NCBI RefSeq assembly: GCF_055900595.2
Contig: NZ_CM148325.1
Length of the DNA stretch: 64,000 nucleotides
Strand: one strand, 5' to 3'
Positions 32,740 through 43,428 of the stretch are shown one piece after another. How positions within the stretch are numbered: the stretch's first letter is position 1; each line of letters starts with the position of its first letter. The position numbers and the translations under genes were made by a program. The notes under the pieces were generated by a model, which had not been told where the DNA came from, ran no database searches, and worked only from the letters and a program-made list of their open reading frames with translations.

Positions 32740-35700
32740 TTAAAATCTTACATAATCACTAAATATATCTCTAAATTCATCAAGTTCACTTTGAGTTGGT
32801 CTTTCCCATCGGTCAGTATTTCTATTCATTCGATGTTGGATATTTTTCCTAGAGATATCCCTCATAGATGTGACAATTTCAGAACCATCTTTTTCAATTA
32901 TATGTGCTCTGCCATTTGGTCCCAGTACAACCCACCGCCCATCTGATTGCTTTAATATATCGCTAGAACGCGCATTTTGAAGATCATTAATAACAGCACC
33001 AATAGGTCGACCTTCACGATGCCGTTGTAAAGCATGACTACTTTTCTTCAAAGTAGCACACATCTGTCCCAACGGATCGATCCAACTTAATGGATTCGGT
33101 GCATATTGATAGAGATTCAGTCCCCCCGCCAGCCCTATCGGGTCCGTTACCATGAACCGCCCGACATCCGGATCATAGTACCTGTGCAGATTGTAATGCA
33201 GCCCTGTTTCCCTGTCGAGGTACTGTCCCTGGTAGCGCAGGTTCTGCTCCACCCCGCCGTGGTCCTTCTCCTGTATCGTGTTACCCCAGACCTGATACCC
33301 CGTCTCCCACACGATTTTCCCGTCACTGTCCGTCATCTCTTCCGGCGCACCGTTCACATCCGTGTGAAAATACAGTATCCGGTTCGGTCCCTCTTTGCCC
33401 GCCTTATCCACCCGCGCCAGCGGTTCATAACTCCCCTGGTCACTGTAGATATACAGGCTGCCTGTTCCCTCCGGCCTGCTCTCCTGCGCCAGCCGCATTC
33501 CGTCCCATAAAAATGTCGTCCGGTTATACGGTTTACCGTCAGGGCTGATGTGCTGTTTTTCCGTCCGCCTCCCCAGCGCATCGTACACATACCGGTACGT
33601 TCCCCGCGCTGTCGTCACTTCCACCATCCGGTGTTCCGCATCATAACGGTAACTCTGCGCTCCGCTCCGGCCCTGCTTTTCCACCGTCCGGCCAAATTCG
33701 TCGTAACGGTAGTGCACACCACGGTAAGACATCAGCCGGTTGAACGGCACAACGCTGTTTTCTGCCGTGGCCCTTTCCCCCGCACGCCGCCCCAGCAGGT
33801 TTCCCGCCGCGTCGTACTGCCAGCTCGCCAGATACCCCTCATCCTCCGAGCGGCACGCCGTGATGCGCCCCGTGGGGTCGTAGAAGTAATCCGTTTCCCC
33901 CCGCCGGCTGTGCCGCGTCTTCAGCAGTTCATCCTCGCCGCTGTAGCTGTACTGCCGGTCCGTGAACGTCTCCGGTACCACCCCGCGCATCCCGCTGTAT
34001 GTCTCCCTGCGCTTCAGCCGCCCGGCGGTGTCGTAAAGCTGCCGCGTGCTCAGTCGCCCCTGACTTCTGAGCACCTCCCGGTGCAGGGCGTCACGTGTGA
34101 ACTCGCTGATGACCTCCCGGTCCAGATTTATCTGCTGGAGATGGCCGCTGCCGTAGTACAGATGGCGCTGCGTTCTGCCGTCCGGAAAGGTGGTGGCTGT
34201 CCGGTTGCCCAGTTCATCGTACTGATGGGTCAGGACGCCCTGCGCCGTCTCCTCGGTCAGCATCCGCCCCAGTCTGTCGTAACTGAAGCGGATAACTTCC
34301 GGCGCGTCAGTTTCGTGCCGCTGGCGGCGGATTTCCAGTAGCTGGTCTGCCGCATCATGGACGTATTCCGTATGGCTATCGGCTGTCTCCTTTGCCGTGA
34401 GCCGGCCCGCCGCATCGCGCGCCAGCCGGTGACGGATTTCACCGCCCCGGTCCCCGGTGAACACCACTTCCGTGACCGCGTTCAGCGCGTTGTAACGGTA
34501 CGCCTGGCGGCAGCCGTCCGGATTTATCTGCTCCGCCAGACGGTCCAGCACATCATGGCGGAACCGGTAGCTTTCTCCGTTCTCGTTCGTGAGCGTGACC
34601 AGACGCCCGTAAGCATCGTACCCGAACGCCGTCCTGCGCCCCGTCGCGTCTGTCCGGCTGCGCACCCGGCCCTGCCCGTCCCGCTGCCAGCGCGTTATCC
34701 TCCCCATCGGGCTGGTGTACTTCACCAGCCTGCCCGCCGCGTCCGACTGGTAATTCACCGTGCGGCCGTCCGCCAGTATCACCTCCGTCAGATGACCGCT
34801 GTCGTCATACCCGTAGCGCGTGCTGTGGCTCTGCGCGTCTGTCATTCTGATAAGCCGCGTGCGTTCGTCGTAGAACCAGGCCGTCTGCGAGCCGGAACAG
34901 TCCGTGTGCCGCATGAGCTGCCCGTCTTCGTTCCACTGAAGGTATTTATTCCCCCCACGGGCATCGGTTATCTGCACCACCTGGCCGTGGCGGTCATACT
35001 GATACCGGGTGTTCTGCTGCAGCGGGTCGGTCACCGCAAGAAGATTGCCGCGTTCATCGTACTCACAGCACCAGCTGTTCCCCGCCGCGTCCACCTCCGT
35101 TTCCGGCTGGTGCCACACCGGGTGCCACTGTGTCTGTGCCACCCGCCCCAGCGGGTCGTGCGTCTCCGTGATATGCCCCTGCCGGTCATACACATAGCGC
35201 CATTTGCCGCCCTGCGCATCGCTCATTCCCAGTAACAGCCGTTCTTCGTCGCTCCAGCGGAACGTCGTCACCTGCCCGGCTTCGTCCTGGTACGCCGTCA
35301 CCTGGTTCTGCGCATCCCACTGATGATAACGCGTGCGCCCCAGCCCGTCCGTCACGCACAGCCTGCGTGCCGCCAGGCTCCACGCCAGCCGGTACTGTTC
35401 ACCGCTGTCCGTGTGGTGCCCCGTCACCCGCCACGCTGCGTCATCCGGGCCTTCATACCAGCCCCACTGGTAATAATACCCTTCGCCGCCCGGCTGGCGG
35501 TGCAGGGTCATGCAGTGGTTTTCGTCGTAAGCAAACTCACGCAGCAGGTGCCCCGTGCTGTCGTACACGCCGTTCAGGTCGCCGGCCTCGTCATAGCGGT
35601 AACGACGCAGCAGTAAAGGAGCCGTCTCAGGGAAATGCTGATAAATCTGTGTCACCCGCCGGGGATGCGCCGCCAGTTCATAATGCAGACGAATGCACGG

Positions 35701-37371
35701 ACGCTGCTGTTCACCGCTGATTTGCGTGATGCGCCCCAGCTCGTCGTAGTACAGATTCAGACAGTTGCTGTTGCGGTCGCCCAGCATTTTCAGCCGCTGG
35801 CGCTGCGGGTGATGCGGGTCGGCTTCAAACAGAAAAAACTGCCCGTCATCGCTGCTGATAAGCCAGTGCCCCTGCTCACCCCGCCGTACTGCCAGTCCTT
35901 CGCCGGGGCTGTAAAACCCGCTCCCCGGCAGCACGGCCTCCATATCCAGGCGTCGTCCCATGCCCGACACAAAGGTCATACAGTTTTCGTCAGCAGTACC
36001 CGGCGTGCGCTCGAGGCTGACTTCATACATCACGCTCCAGCCCTGCCCGAACATCCCTTCCGTGCGGTCGTCACGACTGCTGTACACGCGCTGCCAGTCC
36101 AGCGGAAAGTGGCCCGGCAGACTGAAATCGAAGTCATCGTCATCCGCCAGATATTTGGCTCCGGTGGCGGCATTGACCGGATGCGGAAGGGCACTGATGG
36201 CCTTCTGCGTCATCACCCCCATCCCGACACTGGCAGCAAAACAGGCGATTTTAGAAAGCATTTTGCCCGGGCGAAGAAACATCAGCGCCACGGTTGCCAC
36301 CAGGGTTATCTGCGACCTGCCGCTTCTGATATCCCTGACCACCAGTAACGGACCGCCAATGCGGACATCCGGTGACAAAAACGCCCCGTTCCCCGGCTCA
36401 TTCACCACCCTGGCCTCGCAGGTACAGCGTGCCCCGCTGCGTGCCGCCGGCTGGCTGTTGATACGCACATCCCGCGCGCCTTCCGCGATATATTCCGCTG
36501 CGGGCGGTTCATCATCGCCTTTGAACAGATTACTGATGCTGCCAATAACCGCATTCACTCCCTGAAAGGCGGTTTCCAGCATACCGCCCGGACTCAACAG
36601 GTTAAGGGCCGTTCCCAGGGGGTCATCCAGAAAGGCGGCTTTTTTTTGTGCGAGAAACTGCGTCAGTGAGGAGGGATGTTTATGGCAGTCGATTTTATCG
36701 TCAGGGGTCGGGGTGGAGCCCGGGGCCGCACTGGCCACGGTGGGCTGCCATAGTTCCGACACAAAATGTGTCACGCCATCCACCATTTCAGAACGCCCTT
36801 CTTCCGTACTGAGCTGGTCGTGCAGCGCCCGGGACATCAGCACAGGCCCTGTCACCGGGTTAACCGCCAGGGCTATGGCCCCCGCCATTTCCAGATATTC
36901 CCCGGCCACATCCAGAAACGTTCTGGCATCCTCCTGACGCTGCGCTTCTTCCTGTTCCGCCTTCGCCTTCGCCTGCGCCTCCTGCGCCTCAATGTCCTGC
37001 CGTGATGCCGCAGTCGCCGCGGCCCGCGCGGCAGGTTTGCTGTTGATCCATGTGTCGCCAGAGCCGGTGAGGATGTAACCTTCAATCTGAGGCGGGAAAA
37101 GCCAGTTCGCCAGTTGCTCACTTTCCCTACTGATTCGGTCATTCCAGCCCTGATACGACATAAATACCGCTGTTGCTATACCGATCGCTAAAATGGTTGA
37201 GCAGCCCAGCGTTGCCACTTCAACTCCGCCCAGCGCCGCCATGGTTCCGACAACCAGAACATCCACCAGGGCTGTGGCGGCAACCTCTACAACTGCCCCC
37301 AGCACATCTGCTATAAACGACGTATGCAGCAGGGCATCACCCTGCCTTGCTGCCCAGAATGCCTCTTCCAT
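32740..37371 (-). CDS. full-length Rhs polymorphic toxin with N-terminal prePAAR motif, TM helices and PAAR domain (T6SS cargo effector)
   Basis: 1543-aa ORF. N-terminus has AARQGDALLH (prePAAR AARxxDxxxH) followed by hydrophobic helices, then a PAAR-like region (VRINSQPAARSGARCTCEARVVNEPGNG). Long YD-repeat core, conserved core end YAPNPLSWIDPLGQ, and a roughly 108-aa C-terminal tip of unknown activity. Confidence 0.85.
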   Translation of the reverse strand: MEEAFWAARQGDALLHTSFIADVLGAVVEVAATALVDVLVVGTMAALGGVEVATLGCSTILAIGIATAVFMSYQGWNDRISRESEQLANWLFPPQIEGYILTGSGDTWINSKPAARAAATAASRQDIEAQEAQAKAKAEQEEAQRQEDARTFLDVAGEYLEMAGAIALAVNPVTGPVLMSRALHDQLSTEEGRSEMVDGVTHFVSELWQPTVASAAPGSTPTPDDKIDCHKHPSSLTQFLAQKKAAFLDDPLGTALNLLSPGGMLETAFQGVNAVIGSISNLFKGDDEPPAAEYIAEGARDVRINSQPAARSGARCTCEARVVNEPGNGAFLSPDVRIGGPLLVVRDIRSGRSQITLVATVALMFLRPGKMLSKIACFAASVGMGVMTQKAISALPHPVNAATGAKYLADDDDFDFSLPGHFPLDWQRVYSSRDDRTEGMFGQGWSVMYEVSLERTPGTADENCMTFVSGMGRRLDMEAVLPGSGFYSPGEGLAVRRGEQGHWLISSDDGQFFLFEADPHHPQRQRLKMLGDRNSNCLNLYYDELGRITQISGEQQRPCIRLHYELAAHPRRVTQIYQHFPETAPLLLRRYRYDEAGDLNGVYDSTGHLLREFAYDENHCMTLHRQPGGEGYYYQWGWYEGPDDAAWRVTGHHTDSGEQYRLAWSLAARRLCVTDGLGRTRYHQWDAQNQVTAYQDEAGQVTTFRWSDEERLLLGMSDAQGGKWRYVYDRQGHITETHDPLGRVAQTQWHPVWHQPETEVDAAGNSWCCEYDERGNLLAVTDPLQQNTRYQYDRHGQVVQITDARGGNKYLQWNEDGQLMRHTDCSGSQTAWFYDERTRLIRMTDAQSHSTRYGYDDSGHLTEVILADGRTVNYQSDAAGRLVKYTSPMGRITRWQRDGQGRVRSRTDATGRRTAFGYDAYGRLVTLTNENGESYRFRHDVLDRLAEQINPDGCRQAYRYNALNAVTEVVFTGDRGGEIRHRLARDAAGRLTAKETADSHTEYVHDAADQLLEIRRQRHETDAPEVIRFSYDRLGRMLTEETAQGVLTHQYDELGNRTATTFPDGRTQRHLYYGSGHLQQINLDREVISEFTRDALHREVLRSQGRLSTRQLYDTAGRLKRRETYSGMRGVVPETFTDRQYSYSGEDELLKTRHSRRGETDYFYDPTGRITACRSEDEGYLASWQYDAAGNLLGRRAGERATAENSVVPFNRLMSYRGVHYRYDEFGRTVEKQGRSGAQSYRYDAEHRMVEVTTARGTYRYVYDALGRRTEKQHISPDGKPYNRTTFLWDGMRLAQESRPEGTGSLYIYSDQGSYEPLARVDKAGKEGPNRILYFHTDVNGAPEEMTDSDGKIVWETGYQVWGNTIQEKDHGGVEQNLRYQGQYLDRETGLHYNLHRYYDPDVGRFMVTDPIGLAGGLNLYQYAPNPLSWIDPLGQMCATLKKSSHALQRHREGRPIGAVINDLQNARSSDILKQSDGRWVVLGPNGRAHIIEKDGSEIVTSMRDISRKNIQHRMNRNTDRWERPTQSELDEFRDIFSDYVRF

Positions 37372-37389: not shown

Positions 37390-37842
37390 TTAATTCGTCC
37401 CGGCTTCCTGCCGTATCCTGAAGCGCAGATTCTTTTTAATTTCAGCCCAGCGCGTCATATCTGCCGGGGTCAGCGGTGTGGTTCTGGCGTAGGTGAAGGC
37501 CATCATGACCCGCTCACCCGGCAACACAAATGCCACCTGACACTGGTACACCTGCTCGTTACCCCGGAGAAACTGACTCTGTATTTCCAGCCCTTCTTCA
37601 CCGTCATTAATCCCTACCCGTGTTACCTGAACGGGCGTGTAGTGAAGATCCTTTACCTGTTTCTCCAGTTTTTTCATTTGCTGTTCAATCTGGGAGGCTA
37701 ATTCGTCTCCTTCCTGCATCTGGCCCCGGCTGATAATGAGTGCAGCGTCGGGATCGCTGAGACGCAGCATATTAATCGTACTGTCCTGAATAATATTCCC
37801 GGGGAAAGTTACAACAGTTTCATTGAGATAATACTCCGTCAT
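37390..37842 (-). CDS. DUF1795 / Eag-family effector-associated chaperone
   Basis: 150-aa ORF between vgrG and the prePAAR-Rhs gene. Size and position match Eag chaperones that stabilise prePAAR-effector TM helices; assignment is by context and size, not alignment. Confidence 0.6.
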   Translation of the reverse strand: MTEYYLNETVVTFPGNIIQDSTINMLRLSDPDAALIISRGQMQEGDELASQIEQQMKKLEKQVKDLHYTPVQVTRVGINDGEEGLEIQSQFLRGNEQVYQCQVAFVLPGERVMMAFTYARTTPLTPADMTRWAEIKKNLRFRIRQEAGTN

Positions 37843-37892: not shown

Positions 37893-39887
37893 TTATTTTT
37901 TAGTCATGAAGGTGACGTCTATTGCCAACTGAAGGGCTGTTTTCTCCGATGTTCCAGGCGGAGGTATATCTGCCGCTCTGTCATTCATATTTAAATCAAG
38001 CTGCCCTGATTGTGTATTTATCTTTCCATTTTCCGTTGCGGTAATATTAAAATTCTTACAGGTTATATTAAATATTCCGTCACTGGTCATTTGCAGGATA
38101 GTTTCTCCGCAGCTAAGAATAATGGAATCTCCCGCAGCAAGGCGTAAATTCTGTACGGCCTGAATCGTTTTATTTCGTCCGGCAAGGGAGGTATCATCCG
38201 TCTGGACTGTTAGAGAACGTTTCTCACCAATAATCGCAGTTTCTGTTTTATCAATGACTTTAAGGCGATTATTGCCCACCCAGTGGCTTTCATTATTATT
38301 TACTTCAATGCGTTGATCTTTCTCGGCATGCAACCAGATTTCTTCTCCGCCAGTTTTATCCTCAAAACGCAAGGCGTTAGCATTGGTCGGGCCGCCGCCG
38401 ATAGTGTGGCTGTAAAACCCGCTTTGCGTCGCTGCGCCCGGTAGTCCCCACGGTGGCATGGTGTCCTGATTGTAGGTACGCCCAACGATTATCGGTAAAT
38501 CCGGATCACCGTTTTTGAAATCCACCAGTACTTCCTGACCAATGCGCGGGATCTGAATGCCACCGAATCCTTTACCCGCCCACGGATAACTGACACGGAC
38601 CCAGCAGGAACTGTTTTCATCATTCTTACCGTAACGATCCCAGCCAAACTGAACTTTCACCCGGCCATATTTATCTGTCCAGATTTCCTGTCCCGTCGGG
38701 CCGGTCACGATGGCGCTCTGCGGGCCTTTAGTATGGGGTTTGCTCAGGGTTCGCTGCGGGCGGTAAACTTCGCTGGTGGGATGCAGTTCAAAGCTGGTTG
38801 AGTAAGAGAAATGCTGCTCCTGGCCGCTGTGTTGCGCATTGTCCTGTATAAATAGCGTGGTCTGAACCAGCAGATATTCCCGGTTCACTTCGGCTGTCGG
38901 ATAGTTTTCCAGGGTGAAGGTAAAACCTGTCATCAGGGTACGAATATTGCCGCTGCCCTGTACCCGACTACCGGGGCTACACTGTTCTTCCATGCGGATG
39001 CGTGTCAGCATTTCACCTTCACTCTTTGTGAAGTAGTCTCCCGGCCATTCGTAGTGCTCATATTCAGCAAGGCCAGTTTCACGCGGATTAGCCACGGTGC
39101 TCTTGAGCAGTGAACGCGGCTTCATAAAGTCGAAATCATTTAGTACCCACTGTCCGCTGCGCAGGCTTTCATTTGCTGTGATGGTATGGATAAATTCCTT
39201 GTCCAGTTTCAGCCCTTTCTGGTAATAACACACCAGTGGCGAATCTGCGCACGCCTTGTGGACATTAATGGCATCAGCCAGCACTAACGTGTGACTGTTC
39301 TCGTTGTGCTCAAACCACCAGTAGATACCCCACTCCTGCATCAGGCGCTGAATAAAATCGAAATCTGTTTCACCGTACTGCACCTGCCAGGCGCGAGTCG
39401 GATAATTTTCCACCAGTCGTTTTTCCACTGGCCAGGGGTACTCATCCAGTACCTCATCCAGGATCTCCACCACGTTTTTATTTTGAAACGCTTTGTAGTC
39501 ACTAGTGTGGGTCAGTATTTTTAACCACGGTTCAATCCGCAGTTCATACACCACCGAACGTCCTTGATGACCAGCCACGCGTGCCGCCGTCACCAGCCCG
39601 CTGATATAACGTTTTCCGCCGCCATCCAATTCGATATTGACGCACAGATCTTTGCCCACCATCGGTTTGAGCTGCAGGTTGGCTGCGGGGGAAACATAGC
39701 CCAGGTTCAGGATGTCAGGAGTTTTTAATTTAATAGAATAAGTAAATAGTTCCCCTACTGTTTCTGTCCCCCCTAAGCTTGCAAACAGTAACATTCCATC
39801 AGGAACTGCGCTGCCGCTCAAAGTCACGTTATGTGTACCCGATCCAGTTAGTGCGCCGGATGGATAATCTGTAGCTGCAAAACTCAT
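37893..39887 (-). CDS. vgrG: type VI secretion system spike protein VgrG
   Basis: 664-aa ORF with gp27/gp5-like features (e.g. [63 protein letters not shown], beta-helical repeats). Directly upstream of eag-rhs. The N-terminus is atypical; start taken as the first ATG after the upstream stop. Confidence 0.85.
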
Positions 39888-40242
39888 AATTAATCCTTTT
39901 AACTAGAAATGGCTAAGTGCTAATAAGAAATCTTACAGAGAATAAAATATGCAATATATTCGTAGCTGGCATAAAACATCTCAATACTTATGCGTGCTAC
40001 TGAAGATACTATCAACCATATATGCCTTGAAGAATGCACCATCATGTTAACCTGGTGGAAACATTCACCTAAAGTACATTAATAAAACCAATAAAATTAT
40101 TTAATCTGTTATTTGATATGATTATCATCAAATCTTAAAATACGTTCCCCGGTTCTAATTATGCTAAAACCATAATATTCTTTTGTACTTCCGGAAGAGA
40201 GCATATATTTCCCGATATACATAACATCTGAAGATAGCTCAC

Positions 40243-40464
40243 TTATGTCAATACATTGGGATCGAACTGACCTGTCACTCTTTTCAATTTTATTGCATTG
40301 CCATATTTACCTTCATATAAAATATAATTTGAAATAATATTCCCATCGTCTGGTTTTGAACAAACCCGCCCGTCTTGTAAATATACATTACCGGGTAACA
40401 ATGGGCGAACATAATCACCAACAGTGCATCCCGATAAAAAGAATAACAAAAAGAATCTCTTCAT
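40243..40464 (-). CDS. small predicted lipoprotein (candidate immunity/inhibitor partner of the upstream HExxH protein)
   Basis: 73-aa ORF with signal peptide and lipobox (MKRFFLLFFLSGC). Start overlaps the upstream gene stop (ATGA). Confidence 0.55.
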   Translation of the reverse strand: MKRFFLLFFLSGCTVGDYVRPLLPGNVYLQDGRVCSKPDDGNIISNYILYEGKYGNAIKLKRVTGQFDPNVLT

Positions 40465-41030
40465 ATGACACCAGCAGGAAATAAATTAAGCACCTTCTTG
40501 TATTTTTCCGATAGAGTATTCACTGATTCTGTTGTATCACCTACATAGTTAACATTTGCCAAATCAGAGACCAATCCATAGTTAATCAATAGCCAATAAT
40601 CAGCAACTATAGATGCTTGTTGTTCCATAGAATAAGAAGAAATTGACTGTAAATTAAGATCGTAATGATAATTTGCCGCCCAGGAAAATAAACCACGCAA
40701 CTTAACTGCATACCCTTTCTGATATTGCCAAACATGCATCGTTTCATGAATAAACAAGTGAGAAGCACCTGCAACTGTTTCACGATCACCAGGCATTGCT
40801 TGCGATGAAAAATCTGAACTATAAACAGCATCAGGATAATACATTTCCCCGTTTGGGGTCATCGCTGTTCTTTCCCCTTGACCAGGCAAATATTTTTCAT
40901 TGTGGATCCATACCTTGCTATAATCAATTGTATTCTCAAAAATCGATCTGGCCAATGTTAATTCACCAGATGTCATTCTCCTTAATGATATATCCTTTCC
41001 CCTGGAAATAATATCTTTCAGATAAAACAC
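40461..41030 (-). CDS. hypothetical HExxH-motif protein (putative zinc metallopeptidase-like toxin/effector)
   Basis: 189-aa ORF containing HETMHVWQ (HExxHxxQ). No signal peptide. Translationally coupled to the downstream lipoprotein and co-directional with vgrG. Family unassigned. Confidence 0.5.
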   Translation of the reverse strand: MFYLKDIISRGKDISLRRMTSGELTLARSIFENTIDYSKVWIHNEKYLPGQGERTAMTPNGEMYYPDAVYSSDFSSQAMPGDRETVAGASHLFIHETMHVWQYQKGYAVKLRGLFSWAANYHYDLNLQSISSYSMEQQASIVADYWLLINYGLVSDLANVNYVGDTTESVNTLSEKYKKVLNLFPAGVI

Positions 41031-41928
41031 AAACGCTCTTTGATGTTCAACATTTCCACTTTATACAGTATTGATGACATCATCTTCATAGAAAATGAAA
41101 TCAAAGTAAGTTATCAACGTTTCCCGTTATGATTTTTTAACCTTAATTCTCAGCATTTTTATTAATCTATCTTCAATATCAATAACCGATGCAAATGATT
41201 ACGCAGTTATCATAACTCCCATCAATTGATTAATATCTGTAAACGCTACCGCCCCACCCTGATATTTTAATCTGCACATAGCAATCTTAACGTTATGCCC
41301 CATACATTAGTAATGTAAATTAAGAATTCGGAATATATCAAATTCACTTCATAAATTAATATCGAGAATGATATACACATTAATTATATTGAAGTCATGT
41401 TTTAAGCGTTGTAATGACCATGGAACAGGACTAATTCCAGAAACTCCTGTCAGGCAATAGCGCGTTTATCACCCTACATGCCTTTTACATTTTTTAGCCT
41501 TTTCTGTAACGTCGGCAACTGGCTCATTTAATCAGCAATTGTATCGGCATTTGGCGTATTACCCCTGAAACCTGCCATGTGCTAGCCCCTCACTATTCAA
41601 TGATCCAACCACGCCAGTGTCCACTGCAACCACTGGCGTTCAGAGCGACGAACGAGTGGCGCAAGAGTAGGACTGCCGTCGGGTATCATCAAACCAATAG
41701 TGGTTGTTTCCGTCATAATTTCATCAGGTTGCTATTTTGTTGCCGGCCGCCTTTATCCCCGCATATTTATAGCGGGATTATTTTGCATCGTTACACGATA
41801 AAAGGTAGGATTCTGCGCCGACAGTTATACCCATAAAGAATAATGGTGAATCTTGTCATCGCCAGGATGAATAAACATTGTTCATGGCAACTTATATGAC
41901 TTTTTCATTAAAGCAATCAGGGAGAGCA

Positions 41929-43428
41929 ATGAGTAAACACGACACCGACACTTCAGATCAACACGCCGCGAAACGCCGCTGGCTTAATGCCCACGAAGAG
42001 GGGTATCACAAAGCGATGGGCAATCGCCAGGTACAGATGATCGCCATCGGCGGCGCGATTGGCACCGGCTTGTTTTTAGGCGCTGGAGCCCGACTGCAAA
42101 TGGCGGGGCCAGCACTGGCATTGGTCTATTTAATCTGCGGCCTGTTTTCATTTTTTATTCTGCGTGCATTGGGTGAGCTGGTGCTACACCGCCCTTCCAG
42201 TGGCAGTTTTGTCTCTTATGCCCGTGAGTTTTTAGGAGAGAAAGCCGCTTACGTTGCAGGCTGGATGTACTTCATTAACTGGGCGATGACCGGGATTGTC
42301 GATATTACCGCCGTCGCGCTGTATATGCATTACTGGGGCGCATTTGGTGGTGTGCCGCAGTGGGTCTTTGCGCTCGCTGCGCTGACCATCGTTGGCACCA
42401 TGAATATGATTGGTGTGAAATGGTTTGCGGAGATGGAGTTCTGGTTTGCGCTTATTAAAGTGCTCGCCATTGTGACCTTTTTGGTCGTGGGTACAGTGTT
42501 CCTCGGTAGTGGTCAGCCGCTGGATGGCAACACCACTGGCTTTCATTTAATCACCGATAATGGCGGCTTCTTCCCCCATGGTTTGCTACCTGCGCTGGTA
42601 TTGATTCAGGGCGTAGTGTTTGCTTTTGCCTCCATTGAAATGGTGGGTACAGCTGCCGGAGAATGTAAAGATCCGCAGACCATGGTGCCTAAAGCGATTA
42701 ACAGTGTGATTTGGCGTATTGGCCTGTTTTACGTCGGCTCCGTGGTGTTGCTGGTTATGTTATTGCCGTGGAGCGCGTATCAGGCGGGGCAAAGTCCGTT
42801 CGTGACGTTTTTCTCTAAACTGGGTGTGCCATATATCGGCAGCATTATGAACATTGTGGTGCTGACCGCTGCCCTCTCCAGCCTGAACTCAGGTCTGTAC
42901 TGCACCGGACGTATTCTGCGCTCAATGGCGATGGGCGGTTCCGCACCGAGTTTTATGGCGAAAATGAGCCGTCAGCATGTGCCGTATGCCGGGATCCTGG
43001 CGACGCTGGTCGTTTATGTTGTTGGCGTATTCCTTAACTATCTGGTGCCGTCTCGCGTATTTGAGATTGTGTTGAACTTCGCGTCGCTGGGAATCATCGC
43101 TTCATGGGCGTTTATCATTGTTTGCCAGATGCGTCTACGTAAAGCGATTAAAGAAGGCAAAGCAGCGGATGTCAGTTTTAAACTCCCAGGTGCGCCCTTT
43201 ACGTCGTGGCTGACATTACTGTTTTTACTGAGCGTCCTGGTGCTGATGGCGTTCGATTACCCGAACGGGACTTATACCATCGCTGCGCTGCCGATTATTG
43301 GCCTTCTGCTGGTAGTAGGTTGGTTTGGTGTACGCAAACGCGTTGCAGAAATACACAGCACTGCGCCAGTCGTCGAGGAAGACGAAGAAAAACAGGAAAT
43401 TGTGTTTAAGCCAGAGACGGCGAGTTAA
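41929..43428 (+). CDS. ansP: L-asparagine permease (APC family)
   Basis: 499-aa product from MSKHDTDTSDQHAAKRRWLNAHEEGYHK with 12 TM segments. The track ORF starts 17 codons upstream. Confidence 0.9.
   Translation: MSKHDTDTSDQHAAKRRWLNAHEEGYHKAMGNRQVQMIAIGGAIGTGLFLGAGARLQMAGPALALVYLICGLFSFFILRALGELVLHRPSSGSFVSYAREFLGEKAAYVAGWMYFINWAMTGIVDITAVALYMHYWGAFGGVPQWVFALAALTIVGTMNMIGVKWFAEMEFWFALIKVLAIVTFLVVGTVFLGSGQPLDGNTTGFHLITDNGGFFPHGLLPALVLIQGVVFAFASIEMVGTAAGECKDPQTMVPKAINSVIWRIGLFYVGSVVLLVMLLPWSAYQAGQSPFVTFFSKLGVPYIGSIMNIVVLTAALSSLNSGLYCTGRILRSMAMGGSAPSFMAKMSRQHVPYAGILATLVVYVVGVFLNYLVPSRVFEIVLNFASLGIIASWAFIIVCQMRLRKAIKEGKAADVSFKLPGAPFTSWLTLLFLLSVLVLMAFDYPNGTYTIAALPIIGLLLVVGWFGVRKRVAEIHSTAPVVEEDEEKQEIVFKPETAS

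Follow-up and report, generated by a model that had tools for sequence, protein, structure and literature searches.

A probable VgrG2b-type metallopeptidase effector and its immunity lipoprotein, in decay, upstream of a vgrG-eag-rhs island of Escherichia coli

What do the two small, overlapping genes encode that stand immediately upstream of vgrG in a vgrG-eag-rhs island of E. coli? The question was raised by a stretch of 64,000 nucleotides (NCBI RefSeq assembly GCF_055900595.2, contig NZ_CM148325.1; hereafter the window, meaning this stretch at its full length). In it, a preliminary description had noticed an open reading frame (ORF) of 189 codons with a single HETMHVWQ motif, joined by an ATGA overlap to a 73-codon ORF with an LSGC lipobox, both low in G+C and followed by vgrG, eag and rhs. 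All of these elements were found where they had been described. The two ORFs had been taken for a candidate undescribed module, either a toxin with its immunity protein or a protease with its inhibitor. As detailed below, the pair is in all probability the E. coli representative of the metallopeptidase effectors related to the C-terminal domain of Pseudomonas aeruginosa VgrG2b, together with an immunity protein of the PA0261/SARI_02726 type, and the copy in the window is probably in decay.

The identity of the HExxH protein was addressed by sequence and by predicted fold. A phmmer search of the PDB matched it to 6H56_A, the effector domain of P. aeruginosa VgrG2b, with an E-value of 8.7e-20 (residues 17–152 of the query against 99–235 of the chain), and both its HExxH and its EQQ motif were aligned with 6H56 in this match. 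An AlphaFold2 (AF2) model generated with 44 homologues had a mean predicted local distance difference test score (pLDDT) of 91.6 and a predicted template modelling score (pTM) of 0.90. When this model was compared with the PDB by Foldseek, 6h56_A was retrieved with an E-value of 5.8e-9, template modelling scores of 0.65/0.63 and 34% identity over 158 columns; 6h56_A/B were the only significant matches (E about 6e-9), the next one having E > 1. Residues H82, E83, H86, Q89, E123, Q125 and D131 (numbering of the 176-residue protein delimited below) were invariant in the alignment of the 44 homologues. H82, E83 and H86 aligned to H935, E936 and H939 of VgrG2b, and E123, the aligned equivalent of E983, is the predicted third zinc ligand. 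The motif is not a chance occurrence, since its two His, its Glu and its Gln, as well as the downstream Glu, are invariant among these homologues and recur in 78–79 of the 80 loci examined below. The earlier view that the protein could be placed in no characterised family does not hold, as it is placed with 6H56 by both sequence and fold; a fold search with attention to a third zinc ligand, which had been recommended, led to the 6H56 fold, and the ligand itself was identified by alignment as E123.

The C-terminal domain of VgrG2b is a gluzincin that coordinates zinc through H935, H939 and the third ligand E983, with E936 as catalytic residue; in the cytoplasm it does no damage, whereas in the periplasm it is acutely toxic, and its toxicity needs H935, E936 and H939 (PMC6899460). 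The E. coli protein, which has a size of roughly 20 kDa and carries no signal peptide, shows every defining feature of this family that can be tested in silico, and has one atypical trait, a Thr at the first variable position of HExxH. Members of the family are often annotated as DUF4157, according to Wood et al. 2019 (PMC6899460). PF13699 (DUF4157, now 'eCIS core domain') is a zincin-like HExxH domain of polymorphic toxins and, like the effectors, a short region with HExxH at its centre. Membership of it was rejected for the window protein, which gave no match at E <= 10; among the 44 homologues, weak matches at E <= 0.1 were obtained for 25 and a match at E <= 1e-3 for one, so that, by sequence profile, the relation of the effector family to PF13699 appears marginal at best.

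The second gene was analyzed through its intact allele, which encodes 118 residues in other E. coli genomes. In the window its ATG (40464-40462) overlaps the effector TGA (40463-40461), and the 73-codon ORF starts with MKRFFLLFFLSGC. The 118-residue protein scored 31.4 bits (E = 1.7e-7) against NF045617 ('putative T6SS immunity periplasmic lipoprotein', T6SS standing for type VI secretion system) and the 73-residue one 30.7 bits (E about 2e-7), whereas immunity cluster representatives from other genera exceeded the cut-off of 43 bits with 78.5 and 46.1 bits. A hidden Markov model (HMM) trained on the ORFs that follow the effector in 60 homologous loci recognised the intact E. coli allele with 33.5 bits (E = 1.6e-11 in a search of nine sequences). 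Alignment of 32 effector-immunity pairs revealed two invariant Cys residues, C35 and C71 of the E. coli protein, and in an AF2 model of a fused effector-linker-immunity chain, computed from the paired alignment (pLDDT 77.7, pTM 0.66), the immunity part was predicted as all-beta with seven strands. The partner HMM, synteny, the lipobox and the Cys pair together place the E. coli immunity protein in the PA0261/NF045617 family, as a divergent member. PA0261 is encoded directly 3' of VgrG2b, binds and neutralises the toxin and requires DsbA; its homologues in Enterobacteriaceae are outer-membrane lipoproteins (PMC6899460).

To place the pair within its family, 1.84 billion representative proteins were searched with a profile of the effector; 3776 clusters were returned at E <= 1e-3, of which 1720 reached E <= 1e-10. 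The domain was found as a stand-alone protein of 165–230 residues and as the C-terminal part of proteins of 280–450 and of 1000–1280 residues. In homologue P0059 an N-terminal PAAR domain is fused to the metallopeptidase, and loci L081 and L084 encode VgrG fusions. The stand-alone, PAAR-fused and VgrG-fused forms match the architectures reported previously, in which the domain is carried by evolved VgrGs, by PAAR proteins and by a putative stand-alone cargo effector present in many Enterobacteriaceae (PMC6899460). One such stand-alone pair, SARI_02727/SARI_02726 of Salmonella arizonae, encoded in Salmonella pathogenicity island 20 (SPI-20), was validated in 2026 by assays of interbacterial competition, periplasmic toxicity and partial rescue by the co-expressed lipoprotein; SARI_02726 carries DUF7480 (PMC12992299). 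Given the crystal structure, toxicity and immunity data available for the family (PMC6899460) and this validated Salmonella pair, the module can no longer be called undescribed. PMC8262886 and PMC10763514, consulted for Hcp-dependent delivery or a report from E. coli, do not treat the effector protein.

A scan of species-representative genomes with the pattern HE[ML]xH yielded at least 568 relatives, of which the best 80 loci were analyzed. HExxHxxQ was present in 79 of the 80, and 78 had in addition a downstream (L/M)ExQ. In 66 of these loci the next ORF belonged to one single immunity family, with a median length of 136 residues and, in most cases, an overlap of 4 nucleotides with the effector stop codon; a lipobox was found in 61 of the 66, and exactly two Cys residues in the mature part in 53 of those 61. 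The Serratia and Salmonella partners match Pfam PF24295 (DUF7480). T6SS genes lay within 10 kb in 28 of the 80 loci: 14 had the order clpV-effector-immunity-vgrG in complete clusters, eight had hcp directly after the immunity gene and two were VgrG fusions. The two loci without the full pattern are decayed copies, one in Rosenbergiella gaditana (L007, 10001-10507) where HKMMH replaces the motif and the catalytic Glu has become Lys, and one in Cedecea neteri (L037, 10001-10501) with an in-frame stop within the EQQ motif. Some genomes harbour three to four copies of the pair, as observed for R. gaditana (L007, L015, L038 and L048), C. neteri (L008, L037 and L067) and Serratia plymuthica (L019, L025 and L054). 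A second E. coli paralogue (P0367, 182 residues) shares about 70% identity with the Cedecea/Enterobacter type located in T6SS clusters and is distinct from the subclade of the window protein. Combined, homology to VgrG2b, a partner of the NF045617/PA0261 type and adjacency to T6SS genes favour the proposal, put forward in the preliminary description, of a secreted zincin-type T6SS effector with a periplasmic lipoprotein as partner.

The copy in the window carries lesions in both genes. Close homologues set the effector start 13 codons inside the 189-codon ORF; the ORF is real, and its length is that counted from GTG, RefSeq placing effector WP_032303072.1 at the inner limits, at the same coordinates, in the 99.9% identical genome NZ_CP098223.1. 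Compared with the allele of strain MEI003, the effector differs at four positions, M1I, Y61F, M84T and A143S. M1I affects the start codon itself, which is ATG in MEI003 and most E. coli alleles and ATA in the window. M84T changes HEMMH, found in the other E. coli alleles, to HETMH, at a position occupied by Met or Leu in the family. Two further in-frame codons could serve as starts, the GTG 13 codons upstream and an ATG five codons downstream (40976; codon 19 of the 189-codon ORF). Close E. coli homologues, when aligned, begin at the downstream codon and lend no support to the upstream extension as coding sequence. With translation from the upstream GTG set aside, the window allele probably yields little effector or none.

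As for the immunity gene, that of the 99.9% identical genome is annotated by RefSeq as 'lipoprotein, frameshifted'. The frameshift falls after codon 69, so that 69 native residues are retained, followed by NVLT, and the invariant C71 and four of the seven predicted beta strands, which lie beyond it, are lost. Given the DsbA dependence of PA0261 and the loss of C71, it is very unlikely, by analogy with PA0261, that the 73-residue product protects. The partner proposed earlier is the truncated product of a 118-codon gene.

The spread of these lesions was assessed in 5426 complete E. coli genomes. The locus was carried by 230 of them, the ATA allele was found in nine, and eight of these nine had the exact frameshift allele. 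The ninth, R32_14_1F, combines the ATA start with an intact immunity gene, which indicates that the start change preceded the frameshift. This order of lesions fits a lowering of toxin output first, followed by relaxed selection on immunity.

Several observations weigh against this assignment of the pair or against its decay. Scans of the HExxH protein with Pfam and NCBIfam gave no match, NCBIfam having no model for the effector. Both E. coli forms of the immunity protein fall short of the curated NF045617 cut-off of 43 bits, and a Pfam scan of the intact allele returned nothing at E <= 10 and, with it, no DUF7480 (PF24295); the assignment of this protein consequently relies on profile matches of lower score, on synteny and on the Cys pattern. 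Co-occurrence with vgrG or PAAR genes across genomes, proposed earlier as a check, was borne out by the 28 loci close to T6SS genes and failed in the other 52 of the 80, which look like orphan pairs with no detectable T6SS gene within 10 kb. The family also occurs in taxa that rarely have a T6SS, according to Wood et al. (PMC6899460), and, together with the orphan loci, this means that T6SS delivery may not hold for every member. Finally, the GTG or the downstream ATG may drive translation in the window and the Thr in HETMH may be tolerated, in which case the effector is not dead.

This last point leads to the alternative that survives best, although we consider it rather doubtful: the effector would still be made, from the GTG at 41030, from the ATA or from the ATG five codons downstream, and be active, immunity alone having been lost. 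A toxin retained in the cytoplasm would do no harm, and sister cells would be intoxicated only when the T6SS fires. This would be in keeping with the frame, intact across 189 codons with all catalytic residues kept, with a gene that is still intact according to RefSeq, and with the lack of toxicity of the cytoplasmic VgrG2b C-terminal domain (PMC6899460). Evidence from the alleles points the other way, since R32_14_1F, with ATA and an intact immunity gene, places the start change first, as would be expected if toxin output was lost before immunity; in addition, the change from Met to Thr affects a Met/Leu position of the family (as in the scan pattern HE[ML]xH), and the AGGAG preceding the downstream ATG ends 1 nucleotide before it, a poor spacing.

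According to the assignment to VgrG2b-type effectors, an intact module, with an ATG start and a 118-residue immunity protein, such as about 4% of complete E. coli genomes carry, would act as follows. The zinc peptidase would be exported by the T6SS as cargo and reach the periplasm of neighbouring Gram-negative cells, where, by analogy with VgrG2b, toxicity would need the HExxH+E gluzincin site and the envelope and cell division would be disturbed. Lipoproteins are proposed as candidate substrate; release of lipoproteins from membranes has been suggested as the action of the toxin, with no physiological target identified (PMC6899460). The producer and its kin would be shielded by the translationally coupled lipoprotein, by analogy a small periplasmic protein with an all-beta fold and a disulfide bond, which would bind the toxin. 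In the window copy, the frameshifted immunity gene would be non-functional. Loading onto the VgrG spike is suggested by how often the pair stands just ahead of vgrG, and loading into the Hcp tube by the eight loci in which hcp follows it; an effector this small would fit either route.

A role directed chiefly at eukaryotic hosts instead of bacteria was also considered, prompted by the description of VgrG2b as a trans-kingdom effector that promotes uptake into epithelial cells and was first tied to host-cell internalisation (PMC4453011; discussed in PMC6899460 and PMC12992299). It appears improbable here: antibacterial toxins are marked by just such a tightly coupled periplasmic immunity gene, which 66 of the 80 loci have conserved; the Salmonella stand-alone member works in interbacterial competition (PMC12992299); and the E. 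coli protein lacks the rest of VgrG2b. Least credible of all is the reading, contemplated earlier on, that the HExxH protein stands for a peptidase family not characterised so far, or that the two genes encode a housekeeping protease and its inhibitor without relation to the T6SS: the missing Pfam and NCBIfam matches and the many orphan loci would suit it, and against it stand the strong sequence and fold homology to a solved and characterised T6SS effector domain, the fusions of the domain to VgrG and PAAR elsewhere, a partner from a named T6SS immunity family and, as regards housekeeping, the low G+C and the presence in only 230 of the 5426 E. coli genomes.

Returning to the VgrG2b-type effector, its relation to the rest of the island can be examined through gene order. 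The arrangement effector-immunity-vgrG-eag-rhs is kept in E. coli, in Citrobacter farmeri (67% identity) and in the distant Snodgrassella alvi. In C. farmeri the locus reads tssM-tagF-...-vgrG fragment-effector-immunity-vgrG-DcrB-Rhs, and in S. alvi tssM-tagF-effector-immunity-second immunity-vgrG-eag-rhs; the E. coli island resembles the far end of such a tssM-tagF cluster. The order kept in these three species, with clpV-effector-immunity-vgrG in 14 other genera, is a pointer to a dual-effector spike, in which the peptidase would be a second, adaptor-less cargo of the VgrG that carries Rhs. In a related reading, the order of lesions would reflect a dismantling of the pair without self-killing. 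Both ideas are offered tentatively, as possibilities more than as expectations.

Both related loci show peculiarities of their own. In C. farmeri (L003, 3271-7980) a 5' vgrG fragment of 326 residues, 82% identical to the N-terminus of the window VgrG, immediately precedes the effector, and a DDE transposase is close by, which suggests recombination between vgrG copies; no degraded vgrG was found upstream of the E. coli effector when positions 40900-41950 were searched by tblastn and blastn. In S. alvi (L068, 10537-11680) two paralogous immunity genes, of 154 and 163 residues, stand in tandem, and the VgrG is 66% identical to that of E. coli.

The features of the locus are collected in the table.

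Table. Coordinates of the effector-immunity pair and of the downstream island in the window
Feature	Coordinates	Strand	Remarks
HExxH ORF	41030-40461	minus	189 residues counted from GTG (ORF list)
Effector coding sequence, family/RefSeq limits	40461..40991	minus	176 residues; probable stand-alone zinc metallopeptidase of the VgrG2b C-terminal type
Family start codon, ATA here	40989..40991	minus	Aligned with strain MEI003; homologues P0001, P0003 and P0004 begin MSLRR
In-frame extension from GTG 41030-41028	40992..41030	minus	Possible alternative start (13 codons), giving the 189-residue ORF
HETMH zinc-binding/catalytic motif	40734..40748	minus	H82, E83, H86 (176-residue numbering)
Glu123 (EQQ motif)	40623..40625	minus	Predicted third zinc ligand; aligned to E983 of VgrG2b
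Immunity lipoprotein gene, frameshifted pseudogene	40109..40464	minus	Intact allele of 118 residues
73-residue ORF	40243..40464	minus	Covers the signal peptide, the lipobox and mature residues 1–56; ends with 4 out-of-frame codons and a stop
Lipobox L-S-G-C	40426..40437	minus	From the ORF translation
Site of the 1-bp deletion causing the frameshift	40256..40257	minus	Alignment column 225 against MEI003
vgrG, canonical, directly downstream of the pair	37893..39887	minus	664 residues; TIGR03361, 557 bits; candidate carrier
DcrB/Eag-type chaperone gene	37390..37842	minus	RefSeq 'DcrB-related protein'; PF08786 matches the C. farmeri counterpart
PAAR-Rhs toxin gene	32740..37371	minus	1543 residues; RefSeq RHS repeat-associated core; C. 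farmeri counterpart with prePAAR/PAAR/RHS Pfam matches

The G+C content over positions 40000-41500 was 0.32–0.37, against about 0.5 in the flanks. At the equivalent position, K-12 MG1655 has the order ansP-yncG-yncH-rhsE(pseudogene)-ydcD, and a 120-nucleotide remnant of yncG (glutathione S-transferase) persists at 41597-41716, between ansP and the effector gene, according to the RefSeq annotation of the 99.9% identical genome. The gene order and the remnant bear out the earlier statement that K-12 carries yncG and yncH at this place. As K-12 has intact yncG and yncH and a truncated rhsE, a replacement took place here, with the island either as the newcomer or as the DNA lost. A scan of 39700-41900 for promoters and terminators returned sites no more frequently than in shuffled sequence and is silent on operon structure. 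On the other side of the island, 3' of the full-length Rhs gene, the RefSeq annotation of NZ_CP098223.1 (L001, 3134-4634, corresponding to 31233-32733 of the window) shows an orphan Rhs toxin/immunity array of four features: a small hypothetical gene, which is the probable Rhs immunity gene, a fragment with the RHS core, a 'putative toxin' and an immunity gene of the SUKH-4 family.

The results bear mainly on annotation. In about 230 complete E. coli genomes the pair goes under 'hypothetical protein' or the erroneous 'type IV secretion protein Rhs', labels that could give way to 'VgrG2b-type T6SS metallopeptidase effector' for the toxin and 'immunity lipoprotein' for its partner. The second label is a legacy name, attached to most database entries, and is misleading, there being neither Rhs repeats nor any link to type IV secretion. 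The E. coli/Citrobacter subclade is divergent enough to escape Pfam and the NCBIfam cut-offs, and both sets of profiles could be widened with its help. What is new here is the frameshift in the immunity gene, the ATA start and HETMH, and their rarity (8–9 of 230 genomes). Strains with the frameshift allele should be sensitive to the toxin of E. coli that carry the intact module, which makes them a small natural test case. Beyond annotation little is added; the substrate and the loading of the free form are no easier to test here than in the published models.

Finally, the E. coli pair was compared with two of its closest known counterparts. With VgrG2b (6H56) and PA0261 it shares a homologous domain with the gluzincin HExxH + Glu site and no signal peptide, the association with vgrG, and a small, envelope-targeted, Cys-containing immunity gene directly downstream of the toxin. 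By contrast, the E. coli domain is a free protein of 176 residues, whereas in VgrG2b it is the C-terminal extension of an evolved VgrG; not being fused to VgrG, it must load non-covalently. The immunity protein is a lipoprotein in E. coli and PA0261 a soluble periplasmic protein, the E. coli effector gene lies upstream of vgrG and the VgrG2b domain inside it, and the window copy is damaged.

With SARI_02727/SARI_02726 it has the arrangement in common, both being stand-alone cargos of about 184–189 residues with an overlapping lipoprotein immunity gene, directly upstream of vgrG. For Salmonella, the comparison was made with the S. enterica member P0351 (identity with SARI_02727 unconfirmed), which is 42% identical to the window protein and is encoded upstream of vgrG in a T6SS cluster, with a DUF7480 partner. 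The Salmonella pair lies within a complete T6SS cluster and has an immunity protein of 130–162 residues that matches DUF7480, while the E. coli pair belongs to an orphan vgrG-eag-rhs island and has an immunity protein of 118 residues, too divergent for Pfam. The E. coli/Citrobacter subclade itself is one that had not been studied before, and nothing in it departs from the published model.

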